Of a stretch of 64,000 nt of DNA, positions 365 through 52,811 are shown piece by piece. The stretch's first letter is position 1. Each line of letters begins with the position of its first letter. Origin of the DNA: an uncultured Pseudomonadales bacterium. Lineage in GTDB: Bacteria; Patescibacteriota; Microgenomatia; UBA1400; UBA1396. The stretch covers positions 8,810 through 72,809 of the forward strand of contig CAZRAG010000001.1 in the NCBI GenBank assembly GCA_964598125.1, read 5' to 3'. The translations under genes and the position numbers were made by a program. Under the pieces are notes generated by a model. The model ran no database searches. It saw only the letters and a list, made by a program, of their open reading frames with translations, and had not been told where the DNA came from.

Positions 365-396
365 TACCCGTATCGCATGGCGCCTGCGCCAGACGA

Positions 397-4355: not shown

Positions 4356-4510
4356 AGTACAATGCAAAATTTTCAATTGGATCAGTCAGAAATGCACAAA
4401 AAGGCAAAGGAATACCCGCTGCTTTTGAGGGTGAGCTTCCAAAAGGAAAATATGATATTCATTCTGAACTCAAAGTTCCCTAGGTGGTGGGAAATTTATG
4501 AGAGAGCAGC

Positions 4511-5284: not shown

Positions 5285-5339
5285 ATCAGTATGATAACAA
5301 AACAGAGACAAACAAAGAAATAATATAGGTAACCATGTT

Positions 5340-6125: not shown

Positions 6126-6252
6126 GAAACACATCCTGATTTCTTCCAATGCGGTAAGCAGTTTATCAGACCTCAAGTAATACATCCCACAACTTAATAC
6201 ACCGAAATAGAAGCTAGAACCTTGATGAGTTTTTGATATACTTTGAGGCATT

Positions 6253-6900: not shown

Positions 6901-6933
6901 TAATAAAAGCAATTCCTGATTTCCTCTACAACG

Positions 6934-6949
6934 GGGAGCATACGAAAAC
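6934..6949. repeat. att-core-like fragment (ggggagcatacgaaaa)
   Basis: Matches the tRNA 3'-end/core gggggagcatagaaaa at 463-478 and 4156-4171. It lies in the intergenic region between two convergent genes. Confidence 0.3.
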
Positions 6950-6991
6950 CACACCATCTCCTAAAAAATTCACGCACTTCCTAAGCCTCCC

Positions 6992-8860
6992 TTACCCCAC
7001 CAACCTCTCTCTAAAATACTCCCTCGTCTCTGCATCAGCAGAAAAAATTGAGCAGCTCTTCATACCTCGGCTCATCAATGTTCGATAGGTGTTTTTAATA
7101 AGCGTATCAGCACGTTTTTGTGCTGCCTCCGGGTCCTCCTCATACGCCTTCTTATAACCTTTCAACGACTTGTCGAACTGATCTCGAGCGCCAGGATTCG
7201 TAACAACCTCACCATCTCTGACTATCAAATCAGGGCCAATAATGACGCCTACATGTTGTAACTCCAAGCCTTGGGCCGTGTGAATACAGCCCACTTGATC
7301 GATCGATTCTGGATTAATAATCCAAGTACCACCATGTTTTGATAAGTTCCACTGCATTTGGAATCCATATTCAGGGAACTCAATATCATACTCATTCGGA
7401 TTGTTCTTTGACTTCCACCGCCAACAGTATCCGGCCAGCATTCGAGCCCGATTGTCTGGTTTATTTAAAGTCTCAATATGCTGCTTTAAAAGCATCGGAT
7501 CATCAAAAACACGAAAGTCATACTCGGATTTTTCAAGCCGAATATTGGCCGTTGGTGTTATGCCCAAAGTATTGTCCAACCATGCTAAGTAACCATCCGA
7601 ACCATTGCACCGAAACTGTGATTCCAGTTCAAAAGAGTGAACATCTGCTCCATACCACTTCGCCCACTTTTCAATCTCCGCGACCGAACCCATATCTTGC
7701 CAAGTGACTTGTTGTGATTCATCAATAAAGAACACGGACACCTTAGCGGCACTTATGATTTCCTTTACCTGATTCTTCCCAAAATTGCTAAAAAGACCAC
7801 TTTTCTCTACTAAGCGGTGGGCCTCATCCGTAATCAGGGCATCGTACTCATTATCTGCAGAAGAAATGAAAGAGCCTGAACCGGTAAAGAGAGTATTAAT
7901 CTCTGATTGTTTGTAGGAGTTAGTGAGCTTTGCTTCAAAAACTTTCCGGGGCGCACTATTTTTTGTTACGTAACGGACATTCTTGCGGTGATCAATAATG
8001 CCAGCAGCTAGCAGGTTAATGGCGACCACAGACTTTCCTGTTCCTGGGCCACCCCGAATAATTATGACTTGCTTGCGAGCATGCTTGTCTGCATCCCGAA
8101 TGGCGCGAGAAGCATACTCAAAAACAATTTTTTGAGAGTCTACGAGCATGAAGGCTTGGTTCCCTTGCAGCATATCAAGCAATTTATTCGCCAACTCTTC
8201 TGTTGGCTTGTAGTTTGATTCCGATAGTACACGCAAAATGTTACAAGAATCCGACACAATACCGGCAGATTCGAAATGCTTAATCAGCTTTTCTCGATCC
8301 TGTTTTACAAATAGGGGAGACTGGGACCAATAGTGTCGGTAAAAATCACACAAAAGTTCGTTATTGGATTCACAATTATGAAGGTAGGCACAGGTACGAA
8401 TATCAATATTATGTTGTGAAACACTTTCGTTGAAGTTGCGCAAAAGGTGCGCGTAGGACAAAGCTTTCTGGGAGGGATGATTTGTTTCAGTATACCCACC
8501 GCCAAGCCAAGTCCGCACGATTCCATCCATGTCCGTTCTCTCAACTCGCGCCCACTGCTTGAGCTCCACAATATACACCTTCTGTTCACCCATAGATGTT
8601 TCACCAGCAAGAATAAAATCGATGCGCTTCTTGGTAAAGGGAATACCAAATTCTATCGCAACCGTTGCATCATCATGAAGATCAGCACTATTAACTACAT
8701 GGTACATGGCATTACCAATTGAGTTCTGCCACGCTTTGTACTCAGAGGATTGAGGTTTAATATTTATGAGTAGTTTTTCGCGAACTTGCTGGCGGACAAT
8801 ATCTTGGATATCTGGGGCATCTTGAAGAAACTGCTTCTTCGTAGCCTGGTAAACAATCAT
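6992..8860 (-). CDS. DUF2075-family protein: N-terminal PD-(D/E)xK nuclease-like module plus SF1-like ATPase (Schlafen-like helicase domain)
   Basis: 622 aa. The N-terminus has ...RIDFIL...(13 aa)...IVELKQW, a D...ExK restriction-endonuclease-like signature. Walker A is IIRGGPGTGKSVV, Walker B is LITDEAHRL, and a UvrD_C-like motif is IHTAQGLELQHVGVIIG. The start overlaps the MazG-like stop as ATGA. Confidence 0.75.
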   Translation of the reverse strand: MIVYQATKKQFLQDAPDIQDIVRQQVREKLLINIKPQSSEYKAWQNSIGNAMYHVVNSADLHDDATVAIEFGIPFTKKRIDFILAGETSMGEQKVYIVELKQWARVERTDMDGIVRTWLGGGYTETNHPSQKALSYAHLLRNFNESVSQHNIDIRTCAYLHNCESNNELLCDFYRHYWSQSPLFVKQDREKLIKHFESAGIVSDSCNILRVLSESNYKPTEELANKLLDMLQGNQAFMLVDSQKIVFEYASRAIRDADKHARKQVIIIRGGPGTGKSVVAINLLAAGIIDHRKNVRYVTKNSAPRKVFEAKLTNSYKQSEINTLFTGSGSFISSADNEYDALITDEAHRLVEKSGLFSNFGKNQVKEIISAAKVSVFFIDESQQVTWQDMGSVAEIEKWAKWYGADVHSFELESQFRCNGSDGYLAWLDNTLGITPTANIRLEKSEYDFRVFDDPMLLKQHIETLNKPDNRARMLAGYCWRWKSKNNPNEYDIEFPEYGFQMQWNLSKHGGTWIINPESIDQVGCIHTAQGLELQHVGVIIGPDLIVRDGEVVTNPGARDQFDKSLKGYKKAYEEDPEAAQKRADTLIKNTYRTLMSRGMKSCSIFSADAETREYFRERLVG

Positions 8861-9189
8861 AATTCAGAATATTTCTTGGCACTGCCACGGGCTTTTTCAA
8901 CTGGGTATTTTTGGGCGTTGTGCTCAATTTTTTGGAGAGCTGCTGCCTCAATGTCTATGCCTGCATCATGGGCGAGGAGGAGCACCCAGTTGTACACATC
9001 AGCCAGCTCATTACTAAGCGCTTCTTTTTGAGATTGAGTGAGACTTTCCTCTGTTGAGTGCCACTGAAATATTTCGAGAACTTCAGCTGCTTCTAAAACA
9101 AGTGACTGAGCGAGATTTTGCGGGCGGTGGTATTGTTTCCAGTCACGTTCCTCGCGGAAAGCGAGAAGTTTTTTGAGTACAGCATTCAT
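8857..9189 (-). CDS. MazG-like nucleoside triphosphate pyrophosphohydrolase (single domain)
   Basis: 110 aa carrying the MazG EExxE...ExxD pattern (LEAAEVLEIFQW ... ELADVYNWVLLLAHDAGIDIE). It is translationally coupled upstream of the DUF2075 gene. Confidence 0.75.
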   Translation of the reverse strand: MNAVLKKLLAFREERDWKQYHRPQNLAQSLVLEAAEVLEIFQWHSTEESLTQSQKEALSNELADVYNWVLLLAHDAGIDIEAAALQKIEHNAQKYPVEKARGSAKKYSEL

Positions 9190-9489
9190 AGGGTTATGAT
9201 ACCTCTTTTATTTGAATAGTTAAGAAACTGAGAAATTCTTAGAACAAAATCTTTCTAGTCTACTTATTGTCGTCAGCTTTTTTTGAAAAATAACTTTTAT
9301 CACCCTGAATAGCATCATCCTATAACATTTACTTTCTCCTTCATCTCTAATATAATCCCTCCGCCTAATCGTTACACCATTCAATTTTTGGTGCAAACGA
9401 TAAAGCAGCTCATGAACAGGTGAAAGTTTTTTAGCACAGGTTCGCGGGTAAAAACCTATCAGACGCTTTAGTTCCCTTGGAGGATACAA

Positions 9490-11079
9490 ATGTTGCGTCA
9501 AATCTTGTTCGTGCTTGTTGTCCTTTCCATTGTGATGACAGCTTGCGGGGGTGACGCCCAGCAGCCAGTCATTGTTGAAGATACCGCCCAGCCCATTCAG
9601 CCTTCGGTTGAAAATGTGGCCATTCAACCCACTGCTCAGAGTCAGAGCGCGACCTCACCAACTTGTCAAAACGAACCCCGTATTGGCATGCGCTTCGTTT
9701 GGAACGAGCTCCAACTCGCTTCCAATATTGGAGTTCGCGCTTGGCCTACCGCTGAAACCGCCCTAATGAATCTTGATTCCGGCTATGTTGAAATTGCCGG
9801 AGAAATGATTCAGCAGAGCGGTTCAATTGATACACTTGCGTGGGATTTTCCATCAGCCATCATGGCGACCGATTTTACCCACCTCTATCAAGTCATTGAT
9901 GGGCCGGTGTGTAATGGCTCGCAGTGCGCTTGGCTTGTGACCTTGCTCAACGGAGAAATCGGTTGGACGCTGTGGAACAACGATTTTTGCGAGTGGGAAT
10001 ACAGCCAAGTTCCTAATTGGAAAGCTGGTGACTCACTGGTCGTTCAAGCGAATCCGTTCAACAATCTGCCGATTTTCTTTGGCGATCCAGTTCCTGGAAC
10101 ACCCGTCGATACTCTCCCAAACGGCACCATTGTTTCGGTTATTCAAGGGCCAGTTATTAATGGCCAGTGGTACAGTCAATGGTTTGACCTTCAGTCTGTG
10201 ATTGCTCCAGGCCCAAATGCCCACGGCTATCGCTGGTGGCTCGTACGCTTGGAAAATGGAAGTCAGGGATACGTTCCCGAAGGACTTCCCATGGACAATC
10301 CCTGGCTGGCAAACTCAGCCGTCCCACAGCAATTTGTTGGCGCGGATGAGCCGTGGAGTATTACCTACCTGCGTGTTCCCGCTCCCGTCGCTTTGGACAG
10401 CATAGCCGTTTATGAGCAGCCAATCGATGGAAGCTCAGTTCTCGGCTACCTAGAGCCACTTCGTTACTATGAGTACGTGGCAACCCAACAGTCTTCCAAC
10501 TGGCTGCAGGTTCGCAATCCCTACGGCCTCAATGGCTGGATTGACCTACGTCAGTCACGCAATCTGATCAGAGTAGGCAATCTCCAACAAAGCACTCTCG
10601 CAGAGCTGCCCGTTGATCAGATCATCGAGCAAGCAAGCGTCGCAACGATCACAACGGTTGCAGATCTGGAGCCAGAACAACTGCAAGCTCTGCAAACAAT
10701 CCTCAACCAAGAACAATTGCAACTAGTTGTTCCAATGACAGAAGCGGTGGGAGTAATTGTCCAATACTTCCGAACAGGAAAGGCAGGATCTCTTACAGAT
10801 GCCGTGTGTCTTCCGGTTTCAATTCTGACCGGAGAATCACTTAGCACCCAAACCGCTGATAGCATTTGCCTATTTATAGGTCTAGGCAGTGCAAATCCCT
10901 ATTTTGCTTGGGCTTCTATTACCGCTGACCCATCACGTTACATCGACTCCTGGTATATTCCTTTGCAAACCCAAATCTTGGATCGTACTTCCGGCTCCTG
11001 CCTATTTGCCAAGTACTTTGTACCAGGCGGAGGCGGGGAGCGCTGTGAAGGTATGAACCAATACGATATCTGGGATTAA
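9490..11079 (+). CDS. Secreted lipoprotein, hypothetical
   Basis: 529 aa. N-terminus MLRQILFVLVVLSIVMTACGG is a lipobox-type signal peptide. SD ggagg lies 7 nt upstream. GC is higher than in neighbouring genes, and the protein is Trp-rich. Confidence 0.6.
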   Translation: MLRQILFVLVVLSIVMTACGGDAQQPVIVEDTAQPIQPSVENVAIQPTAQSQSATSPTCQNEPRIGMRFVWNELQLASNIGVRAWPTAETALMNLDSGYVEIAGEMIQQSGSIDTLAWDFPSAIMATDFTHLYQVIDGPVCNGSQCAWLVTLLNGEIGWTLWNNDFCEWEYSQVPNWKAGDSLVVQANPFNNLPIFFGDPVPGTPVDTLPNGTIVSVIQGPVINGQWYSQWFDLQSVIAPGPNAHGYRWWLVRLENGSQGYVPEGLPMDNPWLANSAVPQQFVGADEPWSITYLRVPAPVALDSIAVYEQPIDGSSVLGYLEPLRYYEYVATQQSSNWLQVRNPYGLNGWIDLRQSRNLIRVGNLQQSTLAELPVDQIIEQASVATITTVADLEPEQLQALQTILNQEQLQLVVPMTEAVGVIVQYFRTGKAGSLTDAVCLPVSILTGESLSTQTADSICLFIGLGSANPYFAWASITADPSRYIDSWYIPLQTQILDRTSGSCLFAKYFVPGGGGERCEGMNQYDIWD

Positions 11080-11100
11080 CTTTCCACCTGTTCCAACTAA

Positions 11101-11122
11101 GTGGCCCTCTTCGGAGGGCCAC
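11101..11122 (+). terminator. Stem-loop after the lipoprotein gene, with no U-tract
   Basis: gtggccctc-ttcg-gagggccac is a perfect 9-bp stem with a tetraloop. No T-run follows, so it may not be a classical intrinsic terminator. Confidence 0.3.
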
Positions 11123-11138
11123 CAAACTTAAATGTAAT

Positions 11139-11477
11139 TCATTTTCCCAAATATGCTCTCAGAATAAGTACGAGTACAACAATTGGAACCGCTATGGAAC
11201 TCCAAAGTTGTTTCCCTGTTATGTTATATGAAGAAATTGGCGATATTTTTCCAGTAGAGAAAAAGCTTCCTACAAAACCTATGGGTGGTAGAAGGTAAAC
11301 AAGAGCAGTGTATGGTAGCAAATAGCTCATAATTCCAACTGATCCAAGATAGATCCATAGAGAAATTCCTTGCAGATTAAAGTAGTTTTTCTGCACTTGA
11401 AATTTAATGGTAAACAACAATAAGAAAACGAAAAGATAGAGTGACTGCAGAGGGGTCATGTATTGATTATAGTTCAA
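11139..11477 (-). CDS. Small polytopic membrane protein
   Basis: 112 aa with about 3 hydrophobic helices. Confidence 0.4.
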   Translation of the reverse strand: MNYNQYMTPLQSLYLFVFLLLFTIKFQVQKNYFNLQGISLWIYLGSVGIMSYLLPYTALVYLLPPIGFVGSFFSTGKISPISSYNITGKQLWSSIAVPIVVLVLILRAYLGK

Positions 11478-15410: not shown

Positions 15411-15824
15411 ATGGATAACAAGGAGGTTTTCGTGCCCAAATATGTCGATGGATTTGTTTTAGTTGTCCCAAAAGACAAAACTGAAGAATATAAGAAAATG
15501 GCTGAGGATGGCCGTGATTCGTGGATGAAGCATGGCGCGCTGGCCTACTATGAATGCCGTGGAGATGACCTTATCCCTCAAGAAATGGGTGGTGAAAAAG
15601 CCCGAGCCTTCCCAGAAATGGCTGGTGCGACCAATGATGAAACCGTGTGGTTTTCATTCGTTGTTTTTGAGTCCAAAGAGCATCGGGACCAAGTAAATGC
15701 CAAAGTCATGGCAGAAATGGGAGAAAAAGCATCCGAGTACAAGGACTTCCAAATGCCTTTTGACATGAAAAAAATGGCCTACGGTGGCTTTCGAGTTGAA
15801 GTTGAAGGGGAGAATACAGAATAA
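15411..15824 (+). CDS. DUF1428-family protein
   Basis: 137 aa. N-terminus VPKYVDGFVLVVPKDKTEEYKKMAE matches the conserved start of DUF1428 (YbaA-like) proteins. Confidence 0.55.
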   Translation: MDNKEVFVPKYVDGFVLVVPKDKTEEYKKMAEDGRDSWMKHGALAYYECRGDDLIPQEMGGEKARAFPEMAGATNDETVWFSFVVFESKEHRDQVNAKVMAEMGEKASEYKDFQMPFDMKKMAYGGFRVEVEGENTE

Positions 15825-15854
15825 TTCTCTCTTCATGGTTTCCCCACTGTTACA

Positions 15855-16493
15855 ATGAGAAGTATGGATAAAGAGCGAGCAAAAGAACTGAATAAACTGA
15901 ATATTCGAAGAGCAATCGCTGAAGTAAGTGCTTCCACCCGACCTGTGAGTACCGTACAGCTTGAGATTCAAACGCAAAAACTCCATAAATCATCGGTCAG
16001 CCGAGTAGTAATTGATCATGCAACCGCTGCACGACTTGAAGACAATTCCTTAAGACTTCAAAATGCTGACTTAGGAGTGCGTTTTTCCTTACATGATAGA
16101 AATGAACAACCAGCAATTTCGGCGGAACCTCAACTTGGCAAACAAGAATTGGCTTTTCTCCAAATGTATCTGCGCTATGATGCTAAAAAACAGCAAGTGA
16201 TCGTTACTTCAAATGTAGAAGTTGCCGATAATTACCAAGGTGAAGATTGCCAAGGATACGGTCTTGGTTCTGCCTTTATGCCCAAGCCAGGGTACGATAT
16301 GAGAGAAGAAGCCATTCGAGCGGTTGTTGCGACCCATTATCCAGAAGCGACCAGCATCGTGCTTTCCTTAAAAGACTTTGCTCACGGAAAGGCCGGAAAA
16401 GATCGTCAGCAATGGACCAGTAACTTAGCGGAACAGGCTGGCTATGAGAGTGTGCAGGGACATCTCATCAAAACTATTCACCTCGCAGACTAA
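15855..16493 (+). CDS. Hypothetical protein
   Basis: 212-aa ORF with no recognisable motif. Confidence 0.45.
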   Translation: MRSMDKERAKELNKLNIRRAIAEVSASTRPVSTVQLEIQTQKLHKSSVSRVVIDHATAARLEDNSLRLQNADLGVRFSLHDRNEQPAISAEPQLGKQELAFLQMYLRYDAKKQQVIVTSNVEVADNYQGEDCQGYGLGSAFMPKPGYDMREEAIRAVVATHYPEATSIVLSLKDFAHGKAGKDRQQWTSNLAEQAGYESVQGHLIKTIHLAD

Positions 16494-16506
16494 ATTACTC
16501 CGTTAC

Positions 16507-16722
16507 TTATGGGAAAATATCCTGCTTATACTCCAAAATATCTCCTGGCTGGCACTCCAAGGCCTGGCAAATTGCCTCAAGCGTAGAGAACCGAATCGCT
16601 TTGGCTTTACCGGTTTTTAAAACAGAAAGATTGGCGAGAGTGATTCCAACTTTTTCCGACAGTTGCGTCAAACTCATCTTGCGCTTGGCGAGTAAAACGT
16701 CAATGTTAATAAGAATTGCCAT
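16507..16722 (-). CDS. XRE/Cro-type helix-turn-helix transcriptional regulator (YozG-like)
   Basis: 71 aa with HTH MSLTQLSEKVGITLANLSVLKTGKAKAIRFSTLEAICQALECQPGDIL. Shows the classic pairing with an upstream DUF2975 membrane protein. Confidence 0.75.
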   Translation of the reverse strand: MAILINIDVLLAKRKMSLTQLSEKVGITLANLSVLKTGKAKAIRFSTLEAICQALECQPGDILEYKQDIFP

Positions 16723-16731
16723 ACATGTTCC

Positions 16732-17214
16732 TTAGACCGTTAAGTCATTCTCCGATTTAAGATTAACTGCACTCTGTAAAAGTGTTTGAAAAATGCCAGC
16801 AGCCGTGGCAACAACACTTGCCGCCAAAATAATGAGCAGCCCCAGCAAAACCACTCCTGGCGCGTCATCTTGTTCGCCAAAAATCATGATTTTGGGTAAA
16901 GCCAAGAGCATAAATCCTACACTGGCTACAAAACAGAACTTAATAGTACGCAAGGTGTTGACCGCTGCTTGGGAAAAAACTTTATTATGCTCAATATAAC
17001 CAAGGAGTTTCACTGCTTGATACAAGGCGGTAAAAAAAGGCAGAGAAGCTACATACATGTAAAGAATGACCGGATCGGCATAAATGTGAAAGAGATCGAG
17101 ATTGGCGGCTCTGCCTTCTGTTTGGGGAAACCAGATGAGAGCGAGCAAGTAGACAATACCGATAAGTAAAATAATAAATTTCAAAAAGAGTGTTGAATGG
17201 TGTTTGATTCTCAT
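16732..17214 (-). CDS. DUF2975-family membrane protein
   Basis: Start ATG at 17214 with SD ggagg 4-5 nt upstream. Four TM helices. Genomic partner of the YozG-like HTH gene. Confidence 0.6.
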   Translation of the reverse strand: MRIKHHSTLFLKFIILLIGIVYLLALIWFPQTEGRAANLDLFHIYADPVILYMYVASLPFFTALYQAVKLLGYIEHNKVFSQAAVNTLRTIKFCFVASVGFMLLALPKIMIFGEQDDAPGVVLLGLLIILAASVVATAAGIFQTLLQSAVNLKSENDLTV

Positions 17215-17818: not shown

Positions 17819-18517
17819 CTAAGCAAGAAGAGGAATCTGCAAAACGGTATTGGGATCGGGAAACAAAAGACTATTTTTGGGCAAATCCTTTACCGTGGAA
17901 TACCCAATAGGGGGGGCGCCTTTTTTTGGGAGTGATGTCAGAAGTTGAATGTGTACATGCCGGGACCAACCACCGTTTTCGTCATTTTTGTAATCTCCAA
18001 GAGAAGCAAACTGTTGACCAGCTTTTAGCTCCAATCCTACTTTAGGAAGTAGAGAAGAGAGGTGCCCATAAAACGTAAAAAAATGTGCCTCACCGAGCGA
18101 ATGTTCCAAAATGCAGTAATTACCGTAGGAATGGGAACTGTTTTCTCTATCAGCGACAACGACCCTTGCCTGATAGGGAGCGTACACGGGTGCTGTGTCT
18201 TTGGTAAACAGATCGATGCCTAAATGTATGGTCCGGCCCTCTAGGGCAATTCGCGACCCGCGAAGCATCTCAATTCTGTTTTCTTGATAACGACCAATGA
18301 GAACAGTCTTGTGAGCAGTGTGCAAAAAAGTGTCATTAAAGATTTGTCTGTTTTCGGGAAGCTTAGGATCTGTTCCTTGAGCGATTGCGTCTTCAAAAAA
18401 AAGGTGAATATTTTTATATTTTGGCAAATCCTTTGGAATTTGATGAAAGTCAAGAAAAACAATCTCCGACTGATGTCTCATACCTTTTATTACTTCAAAA
18501 GATGGATTTGCGATCAT
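17819..18517 (-). CDS. M23-family metallopeptidase
   Basis: HxxxD (HLGIDL) and HxH (HVHIQL) zinc-ligand motifs with typical spacing. Confidence 0.7.
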   Translation of the reverse strand: MIANPSFEVIKGMRHQSEIVFLDFHQIPKDLPKYKNIHLFFEDAIAQGTDPKLPENRQIFNDTFLHTAHKTVLIGRYQENRIEMLRGSRIALEGRTIHLGIDLFTKDTAPVYAPYQARVVVADRENSSHSYGNYCILEHSLGEAHFFTFYGHLSSLLPKVGLELKAGQQFASLGDYKNDENGGWSRHVHIQLLTSLPKKGAPPIGYSTVKDLPKNSLLFPDPNTVLQIPLLA

Positions 18518-44672: not shown

Positions 44673-44916
44673 AAACACACCCCGCATCAATTTAGATGTA
44701 TCAGTTAGAAAACTTCGAGAGACCTCTCTCGCCATTTCTTCTGTTTCCAACTGTACTTGCTTAAATAGCAGGAAAATATCGCTTTCTCTTTTCTCTATCA
44801 TATCCTATAATACTAGACTTGTTCTCAAAAACATTGATATCTACGTCTTTTGCTTTTTGAGAGCAGCTCGTGAACATGTTAACGATTTTATTTTTCGAAT
44901 GCACAGGAGGTGTATT

Positions 44917-45327
44917 TTGCTTATACGCGCGATTCAGTTCGCGGCGGCTCATCAGCGATTTTTGCTGTTTGCCGTTATCGGAGGATACGTCACCCTGCAA
45001 GGGGCGGCTATCCTGTGGTTATTAGTCGAGGCCGAATTACGGCCTGAAATCGCCAACATAGGTCAAATGATTGTAAGCATCGAAACAAATTTCTTTGCCA
45101 ACAACTGGCTGACCTGGCGTGACCGGCGTGAGCGCTCGCTGTGGGACCGCTACAAACGATTCCACTTTGCCAAGATAGGAACAGTGGTGCTCAACAGCCT
45201 GCTGTTCGCCGCCCTGATCTGGCTAAAGATTCCCTACATGTTGGTGTACATCATCAACGTGGGAGTCTTTACCGCGATCAACTTCCTGGTAAATGAAAAG
45301 TTTGTGTTCAAAAAGGAAGGTGCGTGA
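44917..45327 (+). CDS. GtrA-family small membrane protein (polyprenyl-P-sugar flippase-like)
   Basis: Four TM helices, GtrA-like. The listed ORF starts at 44857; TTG at 44917 has an aggagg SD 6 nt upstream. High GC. The stop overlaps the next start as ATGA. Confidence 0.6.
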   Translation: MLIRAIQFAAAHQRFLLFAVIGGYVTLQGAAILWLLVEAELRPEIANIGQMIVSIETNFFANNWLTWRDRRERSLWDRYKRFHFAKIGTVVLNSLLFAALIWLKIPYMLVYIINVGVFTAINFLVNEKFVFKKEGA

Positions 45328-46418
45328 TGATTATGCCGACGAAAGTGTCGGTGATCGTCCCTCTCAGAAACTCTGGCGCCCATATTACTGGGTTGCTGGA
45401 TTCTCTCCTTTCCCAAGATTACCCCAGCTTCGAAATACTGTTGGTAGGTAATCAGGGCGATACAACCTGGTCGGCTCTGCCAAGTGACTTGGACCCACGG
45501 GTTCACATCATAGAGGTTGAGCTACCCGAAGGTTGGATGGGCCGCGACTCCAATTTCAAACGGAATCGCGGTGCCGAAGCCGCAACGGGCATCGTCCTGT
45601 TTTACACGGACGTCAAAATCCGCCACCAACCAGACTGGATCAGTACCGGTCTGCGCTTGATGCGCGAAAACCAGGTTGAGGCAGTTGCCGGCATCATGCT
45701 CGGCACAGCGGAATCGACTCAGAGTTTTTTGGGTCGCTTCACTGATAGCGCCCTCATCCGGCGCAATCCAGATTTTGGACAAGGTTACATCCTGAATGCC
45801 CAGAATTTTGGTAATCGGGAAAGTCTCCCCATCACCGCCTGCTGGGCGATGACGCGAGCCGCCTATGAAAACATGGGTGGCTTCGACGAAGACGCTCGTG
45901 ACTCATATGAAGACTACATGAGTGCGTGGAGAGCTGTCCGGGCTGGAGTCGAGTTCTTCGTCAGTAATCTCTGGACGGTTTTCCATAAGCACCGATCGAA
46001 ATTCAAACCAATGCAGCTGGAGTACGCCCGGTCTGCCCGTGGCGCAGCCCAGATGTTCGCCACCTATCCAGATTGCCCGTTCGGCCGCCGGCGTGCCGCT
46101 CAAGTCACCATTGTTCTCGCCATGGTGTTTGTTGGCGTGGTGACACTACTCATATCTCTCGTAGCCTTGGCGTTGGGAAACTGGCAGATCCTCGCTGGAT
46201 TATCAGCAATCGTCACAGCACTGTACGTGCTCGCTGGCACTGCCAATACGGTCAAGGCCCATCACTGGCAGGGATTTTTCTTCCCAGCCTTGACTGGCTG
46301 GTTTATTCTCTGGTTCGCCCTGCATTTTGCGCAGAAATTGCGCGAAGGTGGAGGAGTATCCAAAAACAATAGGTGGTTGCAAACAATGTTCTCTTTAGTC
46401 CTTCCGGGGGTGAAGTAA
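45324..46418 (+). CDS. GT2-family glycosyltransferase with C-terminal TM helices (GtrB-like polyprenyl-phosphate sugar synthase)
   Basis: N-terminus VSVIVPLRNSGAHITGLLDSLLSQDYPSFEILLVG in a GT-A fold, with 2-3 C-terminal TM helices. Confidence 0.75.
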   Translation: MMIMPTKVSVIVPLRNSGAHITGLLDSLLSQDYPSFEILLVGNQGDTTWSALPSDLDPRVHIIEVELPEGWMGRDSNFKRNRGAEAATGIVLFYTDVKIRHQPDWISTGLRLMRENQVEAVAGIMLGTAESTQSFLGRFTDSALIRRNPDFGQGYILNAQNFGNRESLPITACWAMTRAAYENMGGFDEDARDSYEDYMSAWRAVRAGVEFFVSNLWTVFHKHRSKFKPMQLEYARSARGAAQMFATYPDCPFGRRRAAQVTIVLAMVFVGVVTLLISLVALALGNWQILAGLSAIVTALYVLAGTANTVKAHHWQGFFFPALTGWFILWFALHFAQKLREGGGVSKNNRWLQTMFSLVLPGVK

Positions 46419-46420
46419 CC

Positions 46421-47839
46421 ATGAAAACAAAAACGGCCATGACCATCCTGGTCATTGTTTTGCTGGCTGCAGGCCTGCGGCTAGCATTTATGGGCGTAAC
46501 TCCGTGGGACTGGGATGAACCGGTATATACGCGGATCGCCAACAATGTTCAGTCCATGGGTCATCCCAGTCTGGATATTGGCGGGGAAGAGGAATGGTAT
46601 ACCTACCATCCCCCCTTCCATTTCTGGCTTTTGTCCGGGTGGTACGCCCTCATCGGCGATGATACCATCTGGGCGGGGCGCTTGTTCAGCAGCCTAGCTG
46701 CCACAATTTGTGTAGTTTTGTTGATGGTTCTGGTCTGGGAAATCAGTCAGGACAAGCAACTCACCCTTTTTGCCGGATTTCTTTTTGCAACGGATGGCTG
46801 GTTTGGCTACACGAGCTTGCTCGTGAAACTGGACACCACCGCGGTTGCGATTGGGATCGCCGGCCTTATCCTGTTCGTGCAGGCGCTCAAAACCCCAAAA
46901 ACCGGCCTATTTATAGCGACCGGTTTAGTTATTGGGATAGCAACAATCTACAAGCACGTTGCGGCTGTTTTTCTCCTGACGATCGCCATTCATTGGCTGA
47001 TCACAAAGGGAAATCGCAGACAACATCTCATCGTCCTCGCTGCCGCGGGCTTCGTTATCGTCCTGTACATCCTAGGTATGGCGATTTTTGTGGGTGAACC
47101 TTTTACCCACGCTACCGTTGTTCAGGTCCGCAGAACGCTCGGACAGCAAGAGGCTCGTGGTCTGCAGTATGGCCTGGTCGAAACGCTCCAAGCGATGTTC
47201 AATACCTACTGGGCATTCAGTGGCACCGTACTTGTTCTATTCATCGGAGGCATCATATCCATATGGATGGGCAGACTCCACTGGCAGGGAGAGGAACACT
47301 GGCTAGCAGTCATCACCGCTTGGGCGCTCGCCGCCCTCTTGATGCTCGGCGGGATCAAGCTACGAAATCCGCATTACCTCGTGTATGCAATTCCACCCGC
47401 AACCGTGCTCGTAGCTGAGTTTTTGCTTGGCCTGATTGAACAGCGTCGCAACAAACTGGCTGGCCGCTTGCTGGCTGTGCTGCTTGTGATGAGCTTTAGT
47501 ACCTTCAGCATCCGTGCAACACGTTTTTCACCCACCAATGCACTGGGAGAGCTCCAATACCAAATGGATCAACTCCCTGCGGACGTGACTGTACTCTCTG
47601 AGGAAAGCATCTGCGCTCTGATCGATCAGCCCTGTTATCCCTTCGGGCACTACCAGACTGCCGGACAGATCGCCTCTATCCCTGGAGGAAAACCGCAATA
47701 TGTGGTCGTGTACACCACGACCACGCAAAAGCCACCCCAAACTGAGGCGGTGTTGGAGCTTATCTCAGAAGGTCAGGTTATCTACTCCATCTCTGGGTGG
47801 AAAGAAACCTTGACCATCATCCAGGTCGAGAGTCCATGA
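46421..47839 (+). CDS. GT83/GT39-like (ArnT/PMT-type) polyprenyl-phosphate-sugar-dependent glycosyltransferase
   Basis: N-terminus MKTKTAMTILVIVLLAAGLRLAFMG...WDEPVY. 10 or more TM helices, ArnT/PMT_2-like. Confidence 0.7.
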   Translation: MKTKTAMTILVIVLLAAGLRLAFMGVTPWDWDEPVYTRIANNVQSMGHPSLDIGGEEEWYTYHPPFHFWLLSGWYALIGDDTIWAGRLFSSLAATICVVLLMVLVWEISQDKQLTLFAGFLFATDGWFGYTSLLVKLDTTAVAIGIAGLILFVQALKTPKTGLFIATGLVIGIATIYKHVAAVFLLTIAIHWLITKGNRRQHLIVLAAAGFVIVLYILGMAIFVGEPFTHATVVQVRRTLGQQEARGLQYGLVETLQAMFNTYWAFSGTVLVLFIGGIISIWMGRLHWQGEEHWLAVITAWALAALLMLGGIKLRNPHYLVYAIPPATVLVAEFLLGLIEQRRNKLAGRLLAVLLVMSFSTFSIRATRFSPTNALGELQYQMDQLPADVTVLSEESICALIDQPCYPFGHYQTAGQIASIPGGKPQYVVVYTTTTQKPPQTEAVLELISEGQVIYSISGWKETLTIIQVESP

Positions 47840-48026
47840 CCTGGTCGTTAACATGTTTGACAATTCGGGGGGTGTGGTTAGCAATAACTGCATCTCCCGT
47901 TTTCTTTTTTTGTAAGAAATTTGTAAATAAAGTGTGACTTTTTTTCGGGAAAAGGTGAAGTCCCTGGGAGGGACTTTCGGTATGAGCCAAGGGCTTTCGC
48001 CCAAGGCATGTTTTCCGACCACACGA

Positions 48027-48299
48027 TTAGCTTGCGCTGGACGCGGCGTCCAACTTCCAATCGGCGGTCAGCCATTTGCTCAAGCCACGCAAGGCGAGCA
48101 CAATCAAGGCCAAACCGAAAACGGCGGGTACAACAGCAAGCGGCCCATGCGACGCGCACAGCGCCGACAGACCGAGTATGATCACACCAGCCGCCGAAAA
48201 AAGGGTATCGCTTGCGACTTCGCCGACCCACTTGAGCCGACGAACCAATACTGCTGCGACCAACAAGATCACAACCAGTGCGACAAGAAAAAGCTCCAT
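48027..48299 (-). CDS. Small membrane protein
   Basis: ATG at 48299 with SD ggagg about 10 nt upstream. Two to three TM helices. High GC. Confidence 0.4.
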   Translation of the reverse strand: MELFLVALVVILLVAAVLVRRLKWVGEVASDTLFSAAGVIILGLSALCASHGPLAVVPAVFGLALIVLALRGLSKWLTADWKLDAASSAS

Positions 48300-48408
48300 G
48301 GTATTTCTACCTCCGCTTTCCATCTAACCCTCCCAGGCTTCCCCTATATTATACGCTATAGGATCAAAAAATAGCTTGATTTACACAAGAAAAGAGTAAG
48401 AGGAGGGC

Positions 48409-51400
48409 CTATAAGCTGGCTGAGTCCGTGGCAACAGGAGTCTCAATACTTGCCTCAGACGTGGCTACGCTCTCCTGCGCCAACACAATTGACGTTGGCT
48501 CAGGTTGGATTATGGGACTGGGAGTAGGGGAGTTATTGAGGATAATCACCGGGTCTGGACTGTCTGATTGAATCGCAGCTGGGACAATGACCGGTGTGTC
48601 TCCAACAGACGTGTTCGGAGTATCAACCTGTAAAGCGATCCAAGAAAAGCGGGTTCTTTGGGTAGCTGGACCGTTCAAAACAATGCGGAAACTGTTGGGG
48701 GTGACGTCAGTTATTACAAAGCGTTGGCCACTAGAAAAGACAGCGTCTATAGAATCTTCACTCGTTAACATTTGGCTGACATTTACAATAGGCGCAACAG
48801 AGTAAGGACGATCAAAGGTCACCACTACTTCTTGGGCGGCTGGTTGAATGATAGCTAAGCCAGCAGTTTCGGTGGAAAATTCAGGAGCACGTCGAAAACG
48901 AGCAACACCGGCAAACACCACCTCCTTAGAAAAGGTAACGAGCTGCTCAAACTGAGCCTGTCCAACCGCAAGAAATTTCCCCAGTGATTGCAGTGTTTGC
49001 TTCACGGCAAAATTATCAGTTTCATCCGGAAAAACAACCGCCTGGCTTTCTGGTTCAACCGCGGCTGCTTGCTCCAAAGCAGCCACATCCGCAGTGAGAA
49101 GGTTCATCTTAAGGTAAAGACCCTGCACACCAGCCAAGGCAATCCCCGAGGGATCAATGGTTGAAATTGAGGTGTTATTATTCCCCAAACCAAAAATGGT
49201 ATAAAAATCTTGAGCCATTGGTCCAAAGTGGCGAACATTTTGGTCAACTTCCGTCTTAAAACTCCACTCTACTAAAGGAAGCGCGGCAATTTTATCTAAA
49301 ATAAGGTCGTTATCTAAATCGATAAAATTCGTTTTCAAGTTACGGTCAGAGGCGTTTGTCCAATCACCTCCAGCGGTAACATAGGCACCGCTGGCCATGT
49401 GAAGAGGACCCAAAGTTGGTGCTATACCGATCCCCATTTTCCCTGTTGAATCAATGGTTACGGCTGTACCTTGGCCAAAAGAGGAGTTATTTACATTGAA
49501 TTTAATACTTTTACTATTGCCGCCTTGAATGACAGCAGCTGATCCATCATACCCAACCATCATTCGAGTGCTCTGAAAATCAATATATCCAGTAGAGTTA
49601 GCGCCTGAACCAAATTTTCCTGAGAGACCATCAAAAGCAACATGGAACCGCGCCAAAGGATCTGTCGTTCCAATACCTACTTCGCCGGTAGTTGCTTTGG
49701 GCATAACAATAACATTACCGGTTGCCCCGCCCCCCAAAGTCAGATCACCATCACCACTAGTTTGTACACTGGAAGCAGCACTAAATGTTAAGGCCCCACT
49801 TGAAGTAATATTCCCAACAGACACAATATGTCCGCTACTATCTACTTGGAACTGAGAGGTTTCGCCAACACTAAAAAGAGAAGTGGGCGTAACGGTGCCG
49901 ATTCCAACGAGTCCTGTCGGCATGATAGTGACAGCCGTTCCTTGACCATAAGAAGAATTACCAACATTGAGCTTCACCCCTTTACTTGGACCTCCCTGTA
50001 AAACAGCGTAAGAACCATCATACCCAACCATGGCGCGATTACTCTGAAAATTCAGAAAAGAGCGAACGTTTGTTCCTCCCCCAAAAAAAGCCGTTTCATC
50101 ATCACCATAGACCCGCAAAGTACCTGTCCCGGCATTCACGGCAAATGATTCTGTTGTCGTGCCATCTCCTTTATGGATAACAAAACGACGCTGACCACTA
50201 GTATCCGTTTCTCGCAGCCAACGAACGGTCACATCCTTGGTTGCGTCGATGGTTTTGGCATCCAGAGACATCACCGTCATGTCGTTTGTACCTAGCTCAG
50301 TAACCCATTGGCCAATGTTGTAGCTTGCCGTTTTGGCAGCATTCGTCATGTTATGCACCATCTGAATTCGGTCGCCATAATTGTTGTGAACACCATACGT
50401 ATCTACGTTGCTGTAAAGAACATGAGCCAAGTCACGGTTATAGTCGATGGCATACCGAGTAAGCATGACACCTGGTTGGCTGCCGTTAGGATCGGCAGCT
50501 GTTTTCAATTCCCACCGATTGTGAGTATCACCATCGGTGTAGTTCACTCCATGAATGCCAAAGGCCGCCACATGTCGTCCTGTAGAATCAAGGCTGCTGA
50601 TCCAGGGACGATCATACTGACTCGTGGCTTGAAGGATAATAAGCCGAGAGATACTTCCCGTAGTCGGCGTATTCGCTTTGAGTTTGATACCATAGTTTGT
50701 GCTCACTCGAAGATCTCCATTCACTTCCAGGGTTGAAGTTGGATTACTCGTGTTGATACCCACTTTGCCATTACTCACTACGAGCTGATTGGAACCTACC
50801 TGCAAACCATTGGATGGTAGCGATAGTGAACCGGTAGCGGAAAACCAGGCTAAAGCATTACCTGAATTACTCTGTAATTGCAAAAGAGAACTGGAAGATT
50901 GATTGCTTGCTCCCCGAATTACCAGTTGTTTCTCATCAGTGTCACCCAAAATAGTGACTTTCCCCAGTGTTGATCCATTACCAATAACAACATCTGAGGT
51001 TGGAGTGCTAAGGCTCACTGAGTTTGTCAAAGAATTCCAACCATTCAGTGTGGCAGAAGTAATGGTATTTTCAATGGTGATGACATCCTCATCTGCGTTG
51101 AGAGAAAGGTTAATACCATTGCCAGCCTTGAAAGTAAGTGTATCGTTGTTTTGATCTGCACCCAGCGTTTCTGAGTCATTGACTTTTATAGTTTTAAAAA
51201 TTGACTGGCTGGAACCAAGGTCAGAATTTTTGATAATCCCATCTTGCAAAAAAAGACCATCACTTGCCGTCAAACTTAATACTCCCGTATTGCTGATAAA
51301 GTTTCCCGAAATCGCAATGCCTTTACCAGCTTGCCAGATTTCACTTGGTGGATCTGATGGGGGAATGAGTTCTGCAAAAATCGACTGAAGATCACTTGCT

Positions 51401-51660
51401 GTGAATGAGCTCAGCATGATCTCTTTGAACTCCTCATTGCTGAGTCGTAGAGGACTTATAGAACGAGTTGCATTGTCAAAAGCAGGACCATTGCCCAAAA
51501 TTTTTGAAACCGAAGAAAGCGGTTTATCAAACCAACTTGCCACAACAATTTGATCAGGAGAAATCAGTCCATACTTGGCCAAAACGAGCGAGGAGCTAGT
51601 CATGGAAACAACTGCAGAAGTAAACACCAACCACCACCAACGACGCAACGACTTCCACAT
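48409..51660 (-). CDS. Large secreted tail-fibre-like / adhesin protein with a peptidase S74 (intramolecular chaperone auto-processing) domain
   Basis: 1083 aa with a signal peptide. Internal ~70-aa repeats are present. ASDRNLKTNFIDLDNDLILDKIAALPLVEWSFK...GPMAQDF at aa ~770-865 (nt ~49066-49368) matches the endosialidase/tail-spike chaperone domain, with the predicted autocleavage Ser in the SDRNLK motif. Confidence 0.7.
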   Translation of the reverse strand: MWKSLRRWWWLVFTSAVVSMTSSSLVLAKYGLISPDQIVVASWFDKPLSSVSKILGNGPAFDNATRSISPLRLSNEEFKEIMLSSFTASDLQSIFAELIPPSDPPSEIWQAGKGIAISGNFISNTGVLSLTASDGLFLQDGIIKNSDLGSSQSIFKTIKVNDSETLGADQNNDTLTFKAGNGINLSLNADEDVITIENTITSATLNGWNSLTNSVSLSTPTSDVVIGNGSTLGKVTILGDTDEKQLVIRGASNQSSSSLLQLQSNSGNALAWFSATGSLSLPSNGLQVGSNQLVVSNGKVGINTSNPTSTLEVNGDLRVSTNYGIKLKANTPTTGSISRLIILQATSQYDRPWISSLDSTGRHVAAFGIHGVNYTDGDTHNRWELKTAADPNGSQPGVMLTRYAIDYNRDLAHVLYSNVDTYGVHNNYGDRIQMVHNMTNAAKTASYNIGQWVTELGTNDMTVMSLDAKTIDATKDVTVRWLRETDTSGQRRFVIHKGDGTTTESFAVNAGTGTLRVYGDDETAFFGGGTNVRSFLNFQSNRAMVGYDGSYAVLQGGPSKGVKLNVGNSSYGQGTAVTIMPTGLVGIGTVTPTSLFSVGETSQFQVDSSGHIVSVGNITSSGALTFSAASSVQTSGDGDLTLGGGATGNVIVMPKATTGEVGIGTTDPLARFHVAFDGLSGKFGSGANSTGYIDFQSTRMMVGYDGSAAVIQGGNSKSIKFNVNNSSFGQGTAVTIDSTGKMGIGIAPTLGPLHMASGAYVTAGGDWTNASDRNLKTNFIDLDNDLILDKIAALPLVEWSFKTEVDQNVRHFGPMAQDFYTIFGLGNNNTSISTIDPSGIALAGVQGLYLKMNLLTADVAALEQAAAVEPESQAVVFPDETDNFAVKQTLQSLGKFLAVGQAQFEQLVTFSKEVVFAGVARFRRAPEFSTETAGLAIIQPAAQEVVVTFDRPYSVAPIVNVSQMLTSEDSIDAVFSSGQRFVITDVTPNSFRIVLNGPATQRTRFSWIALQVDTPNTSVGDTPVIVPAAIQSDSPDPVIILNNSPTPSPIIQPEPTSIVLAQESVATSEASIETPVATDSASL

Positions 51661-51705: not shown

Positions 51706-51951
51706 ATGGATATCATATTTAACTCATCTAAGACACCAATGATGTTATACTTTAAACACATGGCGAGACGACTGGTCATTGACGAAAATTTAAACAGTCA
51801 TTGGGTGGATGAAAACAATAGGCTCATCCCAGAAGAACCGGAACAAAAAGTTGATCAGATACCTCTAACTCATGAAAGTTCGGTTCAACAAATCATCGAC
51901 TTTATTGAAACACTCCAACCTGGAGAACACCTTGTTTTTTTTTGGCGCTAA
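51706..51951 (+). CDS. Small hypothetical protein
   Basis: The listed ORF 51550..51951 overlaps the start of the large gene; the internal ATG at 51706 (MDIIFN...) is used instead. Confidence 0.3.
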   Translation: MDIIFNSSKTPMMLYFKHMARRLVIDENLNSHWVDENNRLIPEEPEQKVDQIPLTHESSVQQIIDFIETLQPGEHLVFFWR

Positions 51952-52811
51952 ACATACCTCTTGAATATCTTGTGTCGGAAATAGGTGATCGTCCTCGATC
52001 TTACGAATTTGGCGGTTTTTTCAATCCAAGTACACGAGAAATAAGTATCGTTCGTGGTTTCGAAAATGACACGTATGGACCATTTACCGGTGTTGGCGTA
52101 AATTTCAAGCCAGAATTAATCTCCAGAGACGAACAAGGCAGGGTTAGTGGTCTTTTCTGGCATACGCACCCATGGAACCAGGTTGCATCGACACTTGGTG
52201 GCAAGCGGGAAGTTGATAAAAATCGCTGCCTTCCAGGAGACAGAGATAATACGATTCTCATGGCTATGTCTCGAATTGAACAAGAGGAGGGTCATGGTGG
52301 TACCCCTCTCGTATCAATTATTGGTTCTAAAGGATATATCAGCATTACCACCGCCAGTGGACTTGCTTGGAATCGAGAACAATTTCTATCGGCTCAAATA
52401 CCGACAGAGACCGTTGAGGCTCTAGAGAAATCACTCGGCATTGTTCCTCCCATCTGGATTCGCAACCTGGCATCCCCAGGAAAAGAAGATGAATTGTTTG
52501 GTGAAGTTAAAGGCTACTATCAAAAAAAGTTAGCTTTTGATGGCAGTTTTTCGAGTGAAATTGACGTTTTTTTAGACGGATTAGAGCAGAACAGTCTCTT
52601 GAATGCGGCCTGGGCAAGCCGCAGGTACAGCTCTGCTCGATTGTCACTTCGAGCAGAAATGCTCCATTCGCTCCCTGATTTTTCTTTCCGCTGGTTAGAA
52701 AGTCGAGGTCTCACCACAGAACAAGTTCAGCTTGTGAAAACACAAATTGGCATTCAAACACAGGTCTATACTGTGAACGAAGCTGGCCAAAAAACAGTAG
52801 CTCTTTCGTAA
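51942..52811 (+). CDS. Hypothetical protein (contains an FWHTHPW motif)
   Basis: 289-aa ORF. The HTHP motif is faintly reminiscent of JAB/MPN metal sites, but the rest of the signature is not satisfied. Confidence 0.45.
   Translation: MALNIPLEYLVSEIGDRPRSYEFGGFFNPSTREISIVRGFENDTYGPFTGVGVNFKPELISRDEQGRVSGLFWHTHPWNQVASTLGGKREVDKNRCLPGDRDNTILMAMSRIEQEEGHGGTPLVSIIGSKGYISITTASGLAWNREQFLSAQIPTETVEALEKSLGIVPPIWIRNLASPGKEDELFGEVKGYYQKKLAFDGSFSSEIDVFLDGLEQNSLLNAAWASRRYSSARLSLRAEMLHSLPDFSFRWLESRGLTTEQVQLVKTQIGIQTQVYTVNEAGQKTVALS

Follow-up and report, generated by a model that had tools for sequence, protein, structure and literature searches.

The window considered here is the whole stretch of 64,000 nucleotides of contig CAZRAG010000001.1 (GenBank assembly GCA_964598125.1) to which the lines above belong. 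On its minus strand lies a gene for a protein of 1083 amino acids (aa), called the fibre gene in the following, whose product carries a peptidase S74 domain inside the chain and a lectin-like domain behind it. A small membrane protein gene lies directly downstream of the fibre gene, and both converge with three genes of an apparent glycosylation pathway, which we refer to as the trio. The features of the locus, in window positions, are listed here; the abbreviations GT and ORF stand for glycosyltransferase and open reading frame.

48409..51660, minus strand: fibre gene, 1083 aa, ATG start, stop codon included (from the list of ORFs)
51577..51660, minus strand: signal-peptide-like N-terminus, aa 1-28, MWKSLRRWWWLVFTSAVVSMTSSSLVLA with K as the next residue; the sole hydrophobic segment of the fibre protein
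51343..51576, minus strand: variable N-terminal region, aa 29-106, mean pairwise identity 16%
50689..51342, minus strand: beta-rich N-terminal fibre region, aa 107-324, mean pairwise identity 48%
50095..50688, minus strand: core domain, aa 325-522, the most conserved part with 61% mean identity
49882..50085, minus strand: internal repeat copy 1, aa 526-593 (self-alignment)
49414..49614, minus strand: internal repeat copy 2, aa 683-749 (self-alignment), ending in a GKMGIGIAPTLGPL cap directly before S74
49093..49350, minus strand: Peptidase_S74 domain, aa 771-856, with predicted nucleophile S771 and predicted base K776 (Pfam and family profile)
48880..49092, minus strand: helical linker, aa 857-927, poorly conserved (24% identity)
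48622..48879, minus strand: beta-sandwich resembling H-type lectins and tailspike C-termini, aa 928-1013 (Pfam, structure model and Foldseek)
48412..48621, minus strand: tail rich in Pro, Ser and Thr (P/S/T), aa 1014-1083, P+S+T 42% (composition)
48027..48323, minus strand: small membrane ORF, 98 aa, co-directional with the fibre gene and 86 bp downstream of it
47866..47899, plus strand: terminator-like hairpin following the PMT gene, in the gap that separates the two convergent units (consensus scan only)
46373..47839, plus strand: GT-C glycosyltransferase (PMT_2/PMT, GT39-like), convergent with the fibre operon
45324..46418, plus strand: membrane GT2 (Pfam Glycos_transf_2), presumed polyprenyl-phosphate-sugar synthase; orthologues 43-52% identical
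44857..45327, plus strand: GtrA/DPMS-type small membrane protein (Pfam GtrA_DPMS_TM, 68.8 bits), presumed flippase or synthase subunit

A search of 5.8 billion clustered proteins resulted in a family of 11 fibre proteins with 36-99% identity (alignment A1). All 11 members start with a signal-like N-terminus, with clear AxA sites in several of them, as read directly from the sequences without a dedicated predictor. In the window protein, a hydrophobic stretch (aa 9-29) is preceded by K3, R6 and R7, and a possible cleavage site lies between VLA and K. An earlier interpretation of this DNA made from its letters alone (the sequence-only reading) had already described a secreted-type protein of 1083 aa, and the ORF list as well as the N-termini of the homologues bear this out. 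Judging from the N-terminus common to all members, the fibre protein would be exported via Sec. Neither a second transmembrane segment nor a C-terminal LPXTG-type sorting signal was found in any of the 11 members; P0002 contains a single internal LPxTG-like string at aa 550.

The fibre protein is beta-rich and rich in Ser, Thr, Gly and Asn, with Ser and Thr together accounting for 21% of the residues. Its previous description as beta-rich and low-complexity was right in the first part and only loosely so in the second; the protein contains four GxVGIGTxxP motifs. Within the variable region (aa 29-106), several homologues share a Cys-x-LPxISW-x-Cys motif, and the adjoining beta-rich region (aa 107-324) is marked by the motifs GxGIxIxGNxISNTG and SSQSIFK and by the first VGINT. 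A scan of the fibre protein against NCBIfam gave no match, and its PHROG matches to tail fibres were weak. The two internal repeats had been proposed at aa 525-600 and 690-750, which is essentially right: aa 526-593 and aa 683-749 align with a score of 216, compared with 38 ± 7 for 200 shuffles, and share the consensus FQSNRxMVGYDGSxAVLQGGxSKGVKLNVxxSSxGQGTAVTI..G.VGIGT..P. The GxVGIGTxxP motifs, each continued by a Leu (GxVGIGTxxP...L), are aligned by the family profile to Bdellovibrio Bd2133 (8ond) and to 8ojn, albeit weakly (E 0.015-0.4).

The S74 assignment of the sequence-only reading was confirmed by a profile search, in which Pfam Peptidase_S74 (PF13884) matched aa 771-823 with an E-value of 4.3e-12 and 46.6 bits (gathering cutoff 22), and the family profile stretches the domain to approximately aa 856. 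PF13884 matches nine of the 11 family members. The residues S771-D-R-N-L-K776 represent the SDxxxK Ser/Lys motif, which is kept in 9/11 members and degenerate in P0010 and P0011. Single-sequence searches of the PDB with the whole fibre or with the S74 region alone gave nothing useful. MYRF and the Bdellovibrio fibres were found only with the family profile, whose best PDB sequence match was MYRF (7dc3, E 0.011), where the S74 motif is in register and reads ADLRAK.

The position of S74 within the fibre is internal, since 227 residues were counted beyond aa 856, in agreement with the approximately 220 estimated before. As a comparison served the 77 nearest metagenomic S74 ORFs with their C-terminal end inside the fetched locus, and in 75 of them no more than 90 residues follow the domain. 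A rare internal case is the ORF at 2-11161 (plus strand) of locus L016 (ERZ761601 NODE-78), which encodes at least 3,720 aa with an open 5' end and carries S74 273 residues before its C-terminus; the stretch downstream of this S74 domain did not match the lectin-like module described next.

Structure models were AlphaFold2 (AF2) monomers based on the 11-sequence alignment. The model of the N-terminal and core regions is unreliable, with a predicted local distance difference test (pLDDT) value of 41, and the part comprising S74 and the linker has values below 50; in the linker part, two long helices (approximately aa 837-867 and 883-915) are predicted with low confidence. The only confident part of the C-terminal model is aa ~928-1015 (pLDDT 75-92). 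With a Foldseek probability of 1.0, this domain matches the beta-sandwiches that form the C-termini of an R-pyocin fibre and of tailspikes from phages (Pam1, phi297, AP22, Sf6), and with the same probability the H-type lectins SLL-2, Helix pomatia agglutinin (HPA) and discoidin II; for 3wmp, 2ccv and 4q56 the template modelling score is 0.52-0.60. Since eight of the 11 family members match Pfam H_lectin at E < 0.1, the best of them with an E-value of 1.1e-6, this match is credible at the family level. The solved examples known of the H-type lectin and tailspike C-terminal fold are trimeric, and the fold is trimer-forming, carbohydrate-binding or trimer-capping. At 31% identity, few parts of the fibre are less conserved than the lectin-like domain. 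The P/S/T-rich tail behind it is found in nine members and absent from P0008 and P0009.

With an E-value limit of 1e-3, an exhaustive profile search with aa 857-1013 retrieved 2,996 cluster representatives. Their matches lie almost always near the C-terminus of their host proteins, which reach 5,771 aa and of which many possess signal peptides and one collagen repeats. These approximately 3,000 module-bearing clusters appear to represent a family of giant surface proteins that has so far not been characterised. Most of them are without S74, and among the best 150 matches outside the fibre family S74 lies upstream of the module in approximately six. Because of these few cases, and because S74 is terminal in 75/77 of its nearest relatives, the order of S74 and then the module is an uncommon junction of two common parts. 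Among the module proteins P0016-P0159 (e.g. P0018, P0027, P0036, P0065 and P0087), many start with a signal peptide followed by 'A(A/T)GIN(K/R)QINFQGK'. The proteins P0017 (2289 aa) and P0020 (3338 aa) possess the same C-terminal module; they have no signal peptide and begin with an excisionase/MerR-like helix-turn-helix (HTH) sequence 'KKLIPISEAAE.L.VS.DTIRRWD', which is an odd start for presumed surface proteins. P0012 contains HTH_17/MerR Pfam domains as well.

The core domain (aa 325-522, YDRPWIS...HNNYGDR...RETNTSGQRR) has many invariant charged and aromatic residues. A profile of this domain identified five stand-alone homologues, 260-342 aa long and with E-values of 1e-20 to 3e-36, two of which lie inside phage structural modules, with genes for tail spike, head-tail adaptor, Neck1, tape measure, major head protein and integrase as neighbours. 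The core homologues at L089 8001-9029 (P0283) and L090 8001-8783 (P0282) are located between major head/tailspike genes and a head-tail adaptor gene, and P0280, P0283 and P0284 end in a conserved 'AAKP.V.G.R..NAALASLLTALAS.GL.TDS' motif. Searched against the PDB, the profile of aa 107-582 gave a sub-threshold match to the neck of the TP901-1/p2 receptor-binding protein (E 0.06) and nothing else. A scan of IMG/VR with the family alignment revealed no relative of the fibre, and tblastn searches of GenBank phages with the fibre and with a phage core homologue returned nothing. Overall, there are virion relatives for essentially every recognisable part of the fibre protein, and a phage origin of these parts is strongly supported by S74, the tailspike-type C-terminal fold and the core shared with virion proteins.

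The fibre gene belongs to a conserved gene module. The layout of fibre gene, small ORF and then convergent GT-C, GT2 and GtrA genes was found at eight of nine independent loci, namely the window, L002, L004, L005, L006/L007, L008, L093 and L094; at the ninth (L095) there is no trio downstream of the fibre gene and only a PMT_2 gene 2.2 kb upstream of it. In an all-against-all comparison of the loci the module genes were the only ones in common, and the outer flanks consist of different housekeeping genes in each case. None of the 31 S74 loci used for comparison, each having 6 kb of flank or more, contains the trio, and L010, which represents a second lineage of S74-plus-module proteins, has a cellular context without the trio. 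The GT-C protein passes the cutoffs of both Pfam families concerned, with 56.9 bits for PMT_2 and 33 bits for PMT (cutoff 22.7), and its orthologues, which are 38-46% identical, occupy the same position at 8/9 loci. At L004 a GtrA-type domain and the GT2 are fused in one ORF of 521 aa (15412-16977, minus strand), and this fusion supports the view that the GtrA-type protein and the GT2 act together. The distances of fibre and PMT proteins, compared for co-divergence, are star-like (r = 0.21) and speak neither for nor against it. The position of the small ORF is filled at eight of nine loci by a hydrophobic ORF of 61-98 aa whose sequence is barely conserved; assignment of this ORF as a holin or to another phage family found no support, as no Pfam or PHROG family matched it.

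The surroundings of this module are cellular. The ORFs on both sides of the fibre gene were assigned by Pfam and PHROG scans to KsgA, GT4, GtrA, GT2, PMT_2, a DEAD helicase, flavodoxin, HflX, CorA, LCP and comparable genes. No virion genes were detected with these scans within 10 kb on either side nor among the other window ORFs scanned, and neither an integrase nor an att-linked tRNA lies near the fibre gene. The earlier statement that no phage structural genes are adjacent therefore stood up to the flank scans, which reveal no surrounding prophage within the window. The same scans of the eight other loci found only housekeeping or envelope genes and no virion or particle genes. Divergent from the fibre gene lies an ORF of 289 aa (51942-52811, plus strand) without a Pfam or PHROG match, which is not conserved beside the fibre elsewhere; it contains the sequence 'FWHTHPWN', reminiscent of a JAB/MPN-type HxH metal site. 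Further away, an ORF of 622 aa (6992-8860, minus strand) encodes a Schlafen group-3 DNA/RNA helicase domain (E 2e-97), and an ORF of 232 aa (17819-18517, minus strand) has PHROG matches to phage peptidases/endolysins. The latter ORF is isolated, approximately 30 kb from the fibre gene, and does not count as evidence of a prophage.

Among the named relatives of the HflX protein, the nearest carry the labels 'Patescibacteria group bacterium' (at 63% and 57% identity) and 'Candidatus Woesebacteria' (at 56%), so that the window is most likely part of a metagenome-assembled genome (MAG) of the Patescibacteria or candidate phyla radiation (CPR). An HflX protein with 57% identity (P0201) is encoded on a 1.4-Mb contig labelled 'Vitreimonas sp.', a label that is odd beside the Patescibacteria relatives and may be misassigned. 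The MAG containing P0009 (L001/L005, CAYOQI010000001.1) is labelled 'uncultured Pseudomonadales bacterium', which may likewise be a misassignment. A scan of GTDB genomes gave a single locus, with the title 'uncultured Pseudomonadales', which we consider unreliable.

On the basis of the domains found, the conservation of the catalytic residues, the cellular surroundings, the recurring gene module and the fact that core and C-terminal fold have phage relatives, we consider it probable, with some reserve, that the fibre protein is a domesticated, phage-derived, Sec-exported homotrimeric surface fibre of Patescibacteria, encoded by a fixed cellular gene that is coupled to extracytoplasmic glycosylation. 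That a host fibre might have co-opted a phage mechanism had been suggested in the sequence-only reading, and the signal-like N-termini of all 11 members, the housekeeping surroundings and the occurrence of the module at 8/9 loci agree with this suggestion. An adhesin role, proposed at the same time, is a plausible inference, whereas an S-layer-like role found no support. The idea of a co-opted fibre is less novel than it had been made to appear, since cellular S74 surface fibres have already been characterised, namely the MAT (mosaic adhesive trimer) fibres of Bdellovibrio (PMC10769870). The sequence-only reading had overlooked these fibres, the widespread lectin-like module behind S74, the coupling to the trio and the probable affiliation with Patescibacteria.

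The following course of events appears most likely. Once the fibre protein has been exported by way of its N-terminal signal, the S74 domain (aa 771-856) would trimerise and template the folding of the upstream triple-beta-helix repeats and of the core, thus acting as the chaperone of a homotrimer. It would then cut the chain at S771 by means of the Ser771/Lys776 dyad. We infer this trimerising, templating and cutting activity because the motif is conserved and because Bd3182 and phage proteins behave in this way (PMC10769870). The expected products are an N-terminal fibre of approximately 740 aa and a C-terminal trimer of approximately 310 aa comprising S74, the helices, the lectin-like sandwich and the P/S/T tail. 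The trio of GtrA, GT2 and GT-C would assemble a sugar on a lipid carrier and pass it on at the outer side of the membrane, with Ser and Thr residues of the fibre as the most likely acceptors. We favour the fibre as the sugar acceptor because the GT-C protein passes the PMT cutoffs, GT2 and GtrA are fused once, and the fibre is S/T-rich, usually with a P/S/T tail; the adjacency of fibre gene and trio at 8/9 loci is circumstantial and points in the same direction. A cell-wall polymer, which could then provide an anchor ligand or a self-mask, has to be taken seriously as another possible acceptor. The likely role of this presumed surface fibre is glycan-directed adhesion, for instance to a host cell or to a surface, as in the case of the Bdellovibrio MAT fibres.

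Several observations weigh against this interpretation or parts of it. P0010 and P0011 lost the catalytic motif and retained the rest of the protein, which means that S74 cleavage is dispensable in part of the family, and the P0010 locus (L008) retains the trio despite its degenerate S74 motif. Moreover, cleavage would part the fibre from the lectin-like domain, which is awkward if this domain is the adhesive tip. The trimeric state and the cleavage are predictions, and the AF2 monomers are poor except for the lectin-like domain. That domain itself reaches only 15 bits in the window fibre with Pfam H_lectin (PF09458), below the cutoff of 24. The P/S/T tail is not the sole link between fibre and trio, since P0009 lacks the tail and keeps the trio and the locus of P0008 is without the trio. 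In the window, the GC content at third codon positions (GC3) is 0.60-0.63 for GtrA, GT2, PMT and the small ORF, 0.40 for the fibre gene and 0.35-0.46 for the neighbours, and at all eight module loci the trio and the small ORF lie 0.1-0.2 above the fibre and the flanks, with the GT2 of L002 as the only exception. This offset is independent of the base composition of the genome, and the membrane proteins MFS and CorA of the window do not show it. Finally, the placement in the Patescibacteria, although most likely, is taken only from the labels of related HflX proteins.

Part of these points recurs in other explanations of the locus. The fibre could be the same and the trio could glycosylate an envelope polymer instead, creating either the ligand that anchors the lectin-like module to the own wall or a self-mask; we give this possibility a tentative but appreciable chance. 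The gene geometry is identical to that of phage P22, where gtrC, gtrB and gtrA converge with gene 9 for the tailspike, and P22 GtrABC alters the O-antigen, the receptor of its own tailspike, which is a precedent for a self-mask. Decoration of teichoic acids or O-antigen by three-component systems of the Gtr type is well known, P0009 retains the trio without a P/S/T tail, and the presence of the module at the end of approximately 3,000 otherwise different giant secreted proteins would be expected of an anchor or sorting module and not of a variable tip. However, only GtrA is weakly P22-like, there is no similarity of GT2 to GtrB or of GT-C to GtrC, the GT-C protein falls into the PMT/PMT_2 group, which includes protein O-mannosyltransferases, and the 31% identity of the lectin-like domain fits an anchor for a conserved self-glycan no better than a diversifying binding tip. 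A different use of S74 would be a release switch like that of MYRF, where cleavage frees an N-terminal trimer from an anchored part: the C-terminal fragment would be fixed in the wall and cleavage would free the N-terminal trimer as a soluble or transferable factor. We regard this as unlikely, although the internal position of S74 corresponds to that in MYRF, which is also the best PDB match, and although the embedded S74 is a derived and presumably meaningful state given that the domain is terminal in 75/77 nearest relatives. Such a switch is also favoured by the P/S/T tail, since surface proteins of monoderms typically span the wall with C-terminal spacers of this composition. On the other hand, the C-terminus has neither a transmembrane segment nor a sorting signal, members with an inactive S74 exist, the function of a freed fibre is not evident, and in Bdellovibrio it is the N-terminal domain of the MAT fibres that is the proposed cell-proximal end. 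A more far-reaching version is that domesticated tailspike and gtr genes form a unit for host recognition by CPR epibionts, in which the fibre binds a glycan on the surface of the bacterial host, the trio blocks self-binding and S74 serves as a one-shot switch. We consider this version speculative and improbable. If it were true, the logic of phage superinfection exclusion would have been reused for cell-cell attachment, and the S74 switch would part the exposed fibre from a lectin-like base bound to the wall, with the trio modifying the own envelope or the fibre.

Two further explanations dispense with a cellular fibre. The fibre gene could be the leftover of a decaying prophage, namely a tail-fibre gene with a gtr-like lysogenic-conversion cassette in att-proximal position and without a current role. 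It is true that each recognisable part of the fibre has phage relatives, that a tailspike-gtrCBA arrangement beside attP is a known phage layout and that the glycosylation genes differ from their surroundings in composition. However, the ORFs are intact, the module is present in eight of nine diverged genomes (36-61% identity of the fibre, 38-46% of PMT) with differing flanks, and all members have a signal peptide, which phage fibres assembled in the cytoplasm do not need. In addition, no integrase, att-linked tRNA or virion gene lies nearby and the GC3 of the fibre gene is host-like, which makes a prophage remnant very improbable. The lone prophage remnant that the sequence-only reading offered as its second option is hence not supported as far as decay is concerned, since the ORFs are intact and the module is conserved, and upheld regarding the phage origin of the parts. 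The gene could also encode the fibre of a tailocin, an extracellular contractile injection system (eCIS) or another phage-tail-like particle encoded elsewhere in the genome. S74 and H-lectin domains are both among the tail-fibre modules of eCIS (PMC12923769) and the C-terminal fold is common to R-pyocin fibres, but no sheath, tube or baseplate genes occur among the scanned window ORFs or at the other examined loci. The signal peptide implies separate export and the conserved partners are glycosyltransferases and not particle genes, so that we rate this explanation as the least probable of all.

If the fibre protein is indeed a domesticated surface fibre, this is of interest in several respects. 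Host recognition and attachment of CPR/Patescibacteria are largely unexplained beyond type IV pili, and a search on tail fibres, adhesins and episymbionts of Patescibacteria yielded no paper about fibres of this kind. The fibre gene, which is conserved, fixed in the chromosome, derived from phages and accompanied by glycosylation genes, encodes a lectin-like domain and thereby offers a testable candidate for this recognition. Reuse of the receptor-binding fibres of phages by cells, known from Bdellovibrio, would thus be extended to a lineage far removed from it. The S74 domain in this fibre is a natural bacterial case of a mid-chain chaperone-protease, an arrangement otherwise known from eukaryotic MYRF, and with its natural 'dead-protease' variants the family allows a comparison. 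As a building block of giant secreted proteins, the lectin-like C-terminal module is uncharacterised and, with approximately 3,000 clusters carrying it, widespread. In the searchable library, no paper was found that links S74 with H-type lectins.

The sugar-transfer genes can be compared with two known systems. Actinobacterial Ppm1/Pmt O-mannosylation combines a polyprenyl-phosphate-sugar synthase with a GT-C protein of the PMT family acting on Sec-exported Ser/Thr/Pro-rich proteins. The window trio resembles it in possessing a GT2 with a GtrA/DPMS-type membrane part and a PMT-family GT-C, whereas the actinobacterial enzymes are general ones that are not encoded beside a single substrate gene. 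With P22 gene 9 and gtrABC the window shares a receptor-binding fibre gene convergent with genes for GT-C, GT2 and GtrA, i.e. the same three functional classes. In contrast to P22, there is no attP, integrase or prophage in the window, the GT-C protein is PMT-like, and an extra small membrane ORF lies between the units. Homology of the trio to P22 GtrABC was rejected apart from a weak signal of the GtrA protein (E 2e-4); GT2 and GT-C showed no similarity to GtrB and GtrC, and PHROG scans of the window GT2 and GT-C proteins gave no matches. The likeness to P22 is one of organisation and logic and not of family membership.

The individual domains likewise have known counterparts. Phage S74 proteins such as the K1F endosialidase and T5 pb1 share with the window fibre the PF13884 domain, the Ser/Lys motif and the position of the domain directly after a triple-beta-helix region. 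In the phage proteins the domain is C-terminal and is discarded after cleavage, whereas 227 further residues follow in the window fibre, which also has a signal peptide and no phage context. The ICA domain of MYRF is, as in the window fibre, an S74-type domain in the interior of a cellular protein, and its cleavage parts an N-terminal trimer from a C-terminal part. However, MYRF is a eukaryotic membrane-bound transcription factor with a C-terminal transmembrane helix, which the window fibre does not have, and the other domains are unrelated. With the H-type lectins (Helix pomatia agglutinin, SLL-2, discoidin II) the fibre shares the fold of aa 928-1013 (template modelling score 0.5-0.6 to SLL-2 and HPA), but its domain remains below the Pfam cutoff and is placed after S74 and before a P/S/T tail.

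The closest characterised relatives are the MAT fibres of Bdellovibrio bacteriovorus (Caulton et al. 2024, PMC10769870). These are cellular and not prophage-encoded proteins of approximately 1,000 aa with a signal peptide, which form trimeric beta-helical fibres on the cell surface. Thirteen of the 21 MAT fibres end in S74 with SDxxxK, one of which (Bd3182) has been shown to be self-cleaving, and the remaining ones carry lectin-like or beta-sandwich tips; the fibres are used to recognise other cells or prey. They also possess a capping-loop motif V-G-x-x-x-x-P-x-x-x-L and a beta-rich domain that is conserved and spans ~130 aa right after the signal peptide (PMC10769870). The window fibre is alike in size class (1083 aa) and in its signal-like N-terminus, and its GxVGIGTxxP motifs may correspond to the cap motif, given the weak profile match to Bd2133/8ond (E 0.015). 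However, S74 and tip are alternatives in the MAT fibres, whereas the window fibre has S74 and then a lectin-like sandwich. Furthermore, Bdellovibrio is a diderm predator and the window organism presumably a monoderm member of the Patescibacteria, the core of the window family is common to phage virion proteins, and the window family is coupled to a glycosylation trio, while glycosylation is absent from the main text of PMC10769870. Cellular S74 fibres are thus known from Bdellovibrio; the window family departs from them in the order of S74 before a lectin-like domain, the virion-type core, the occurrence, most likely, in Patescibacteria and the genetic coupling to the trio.

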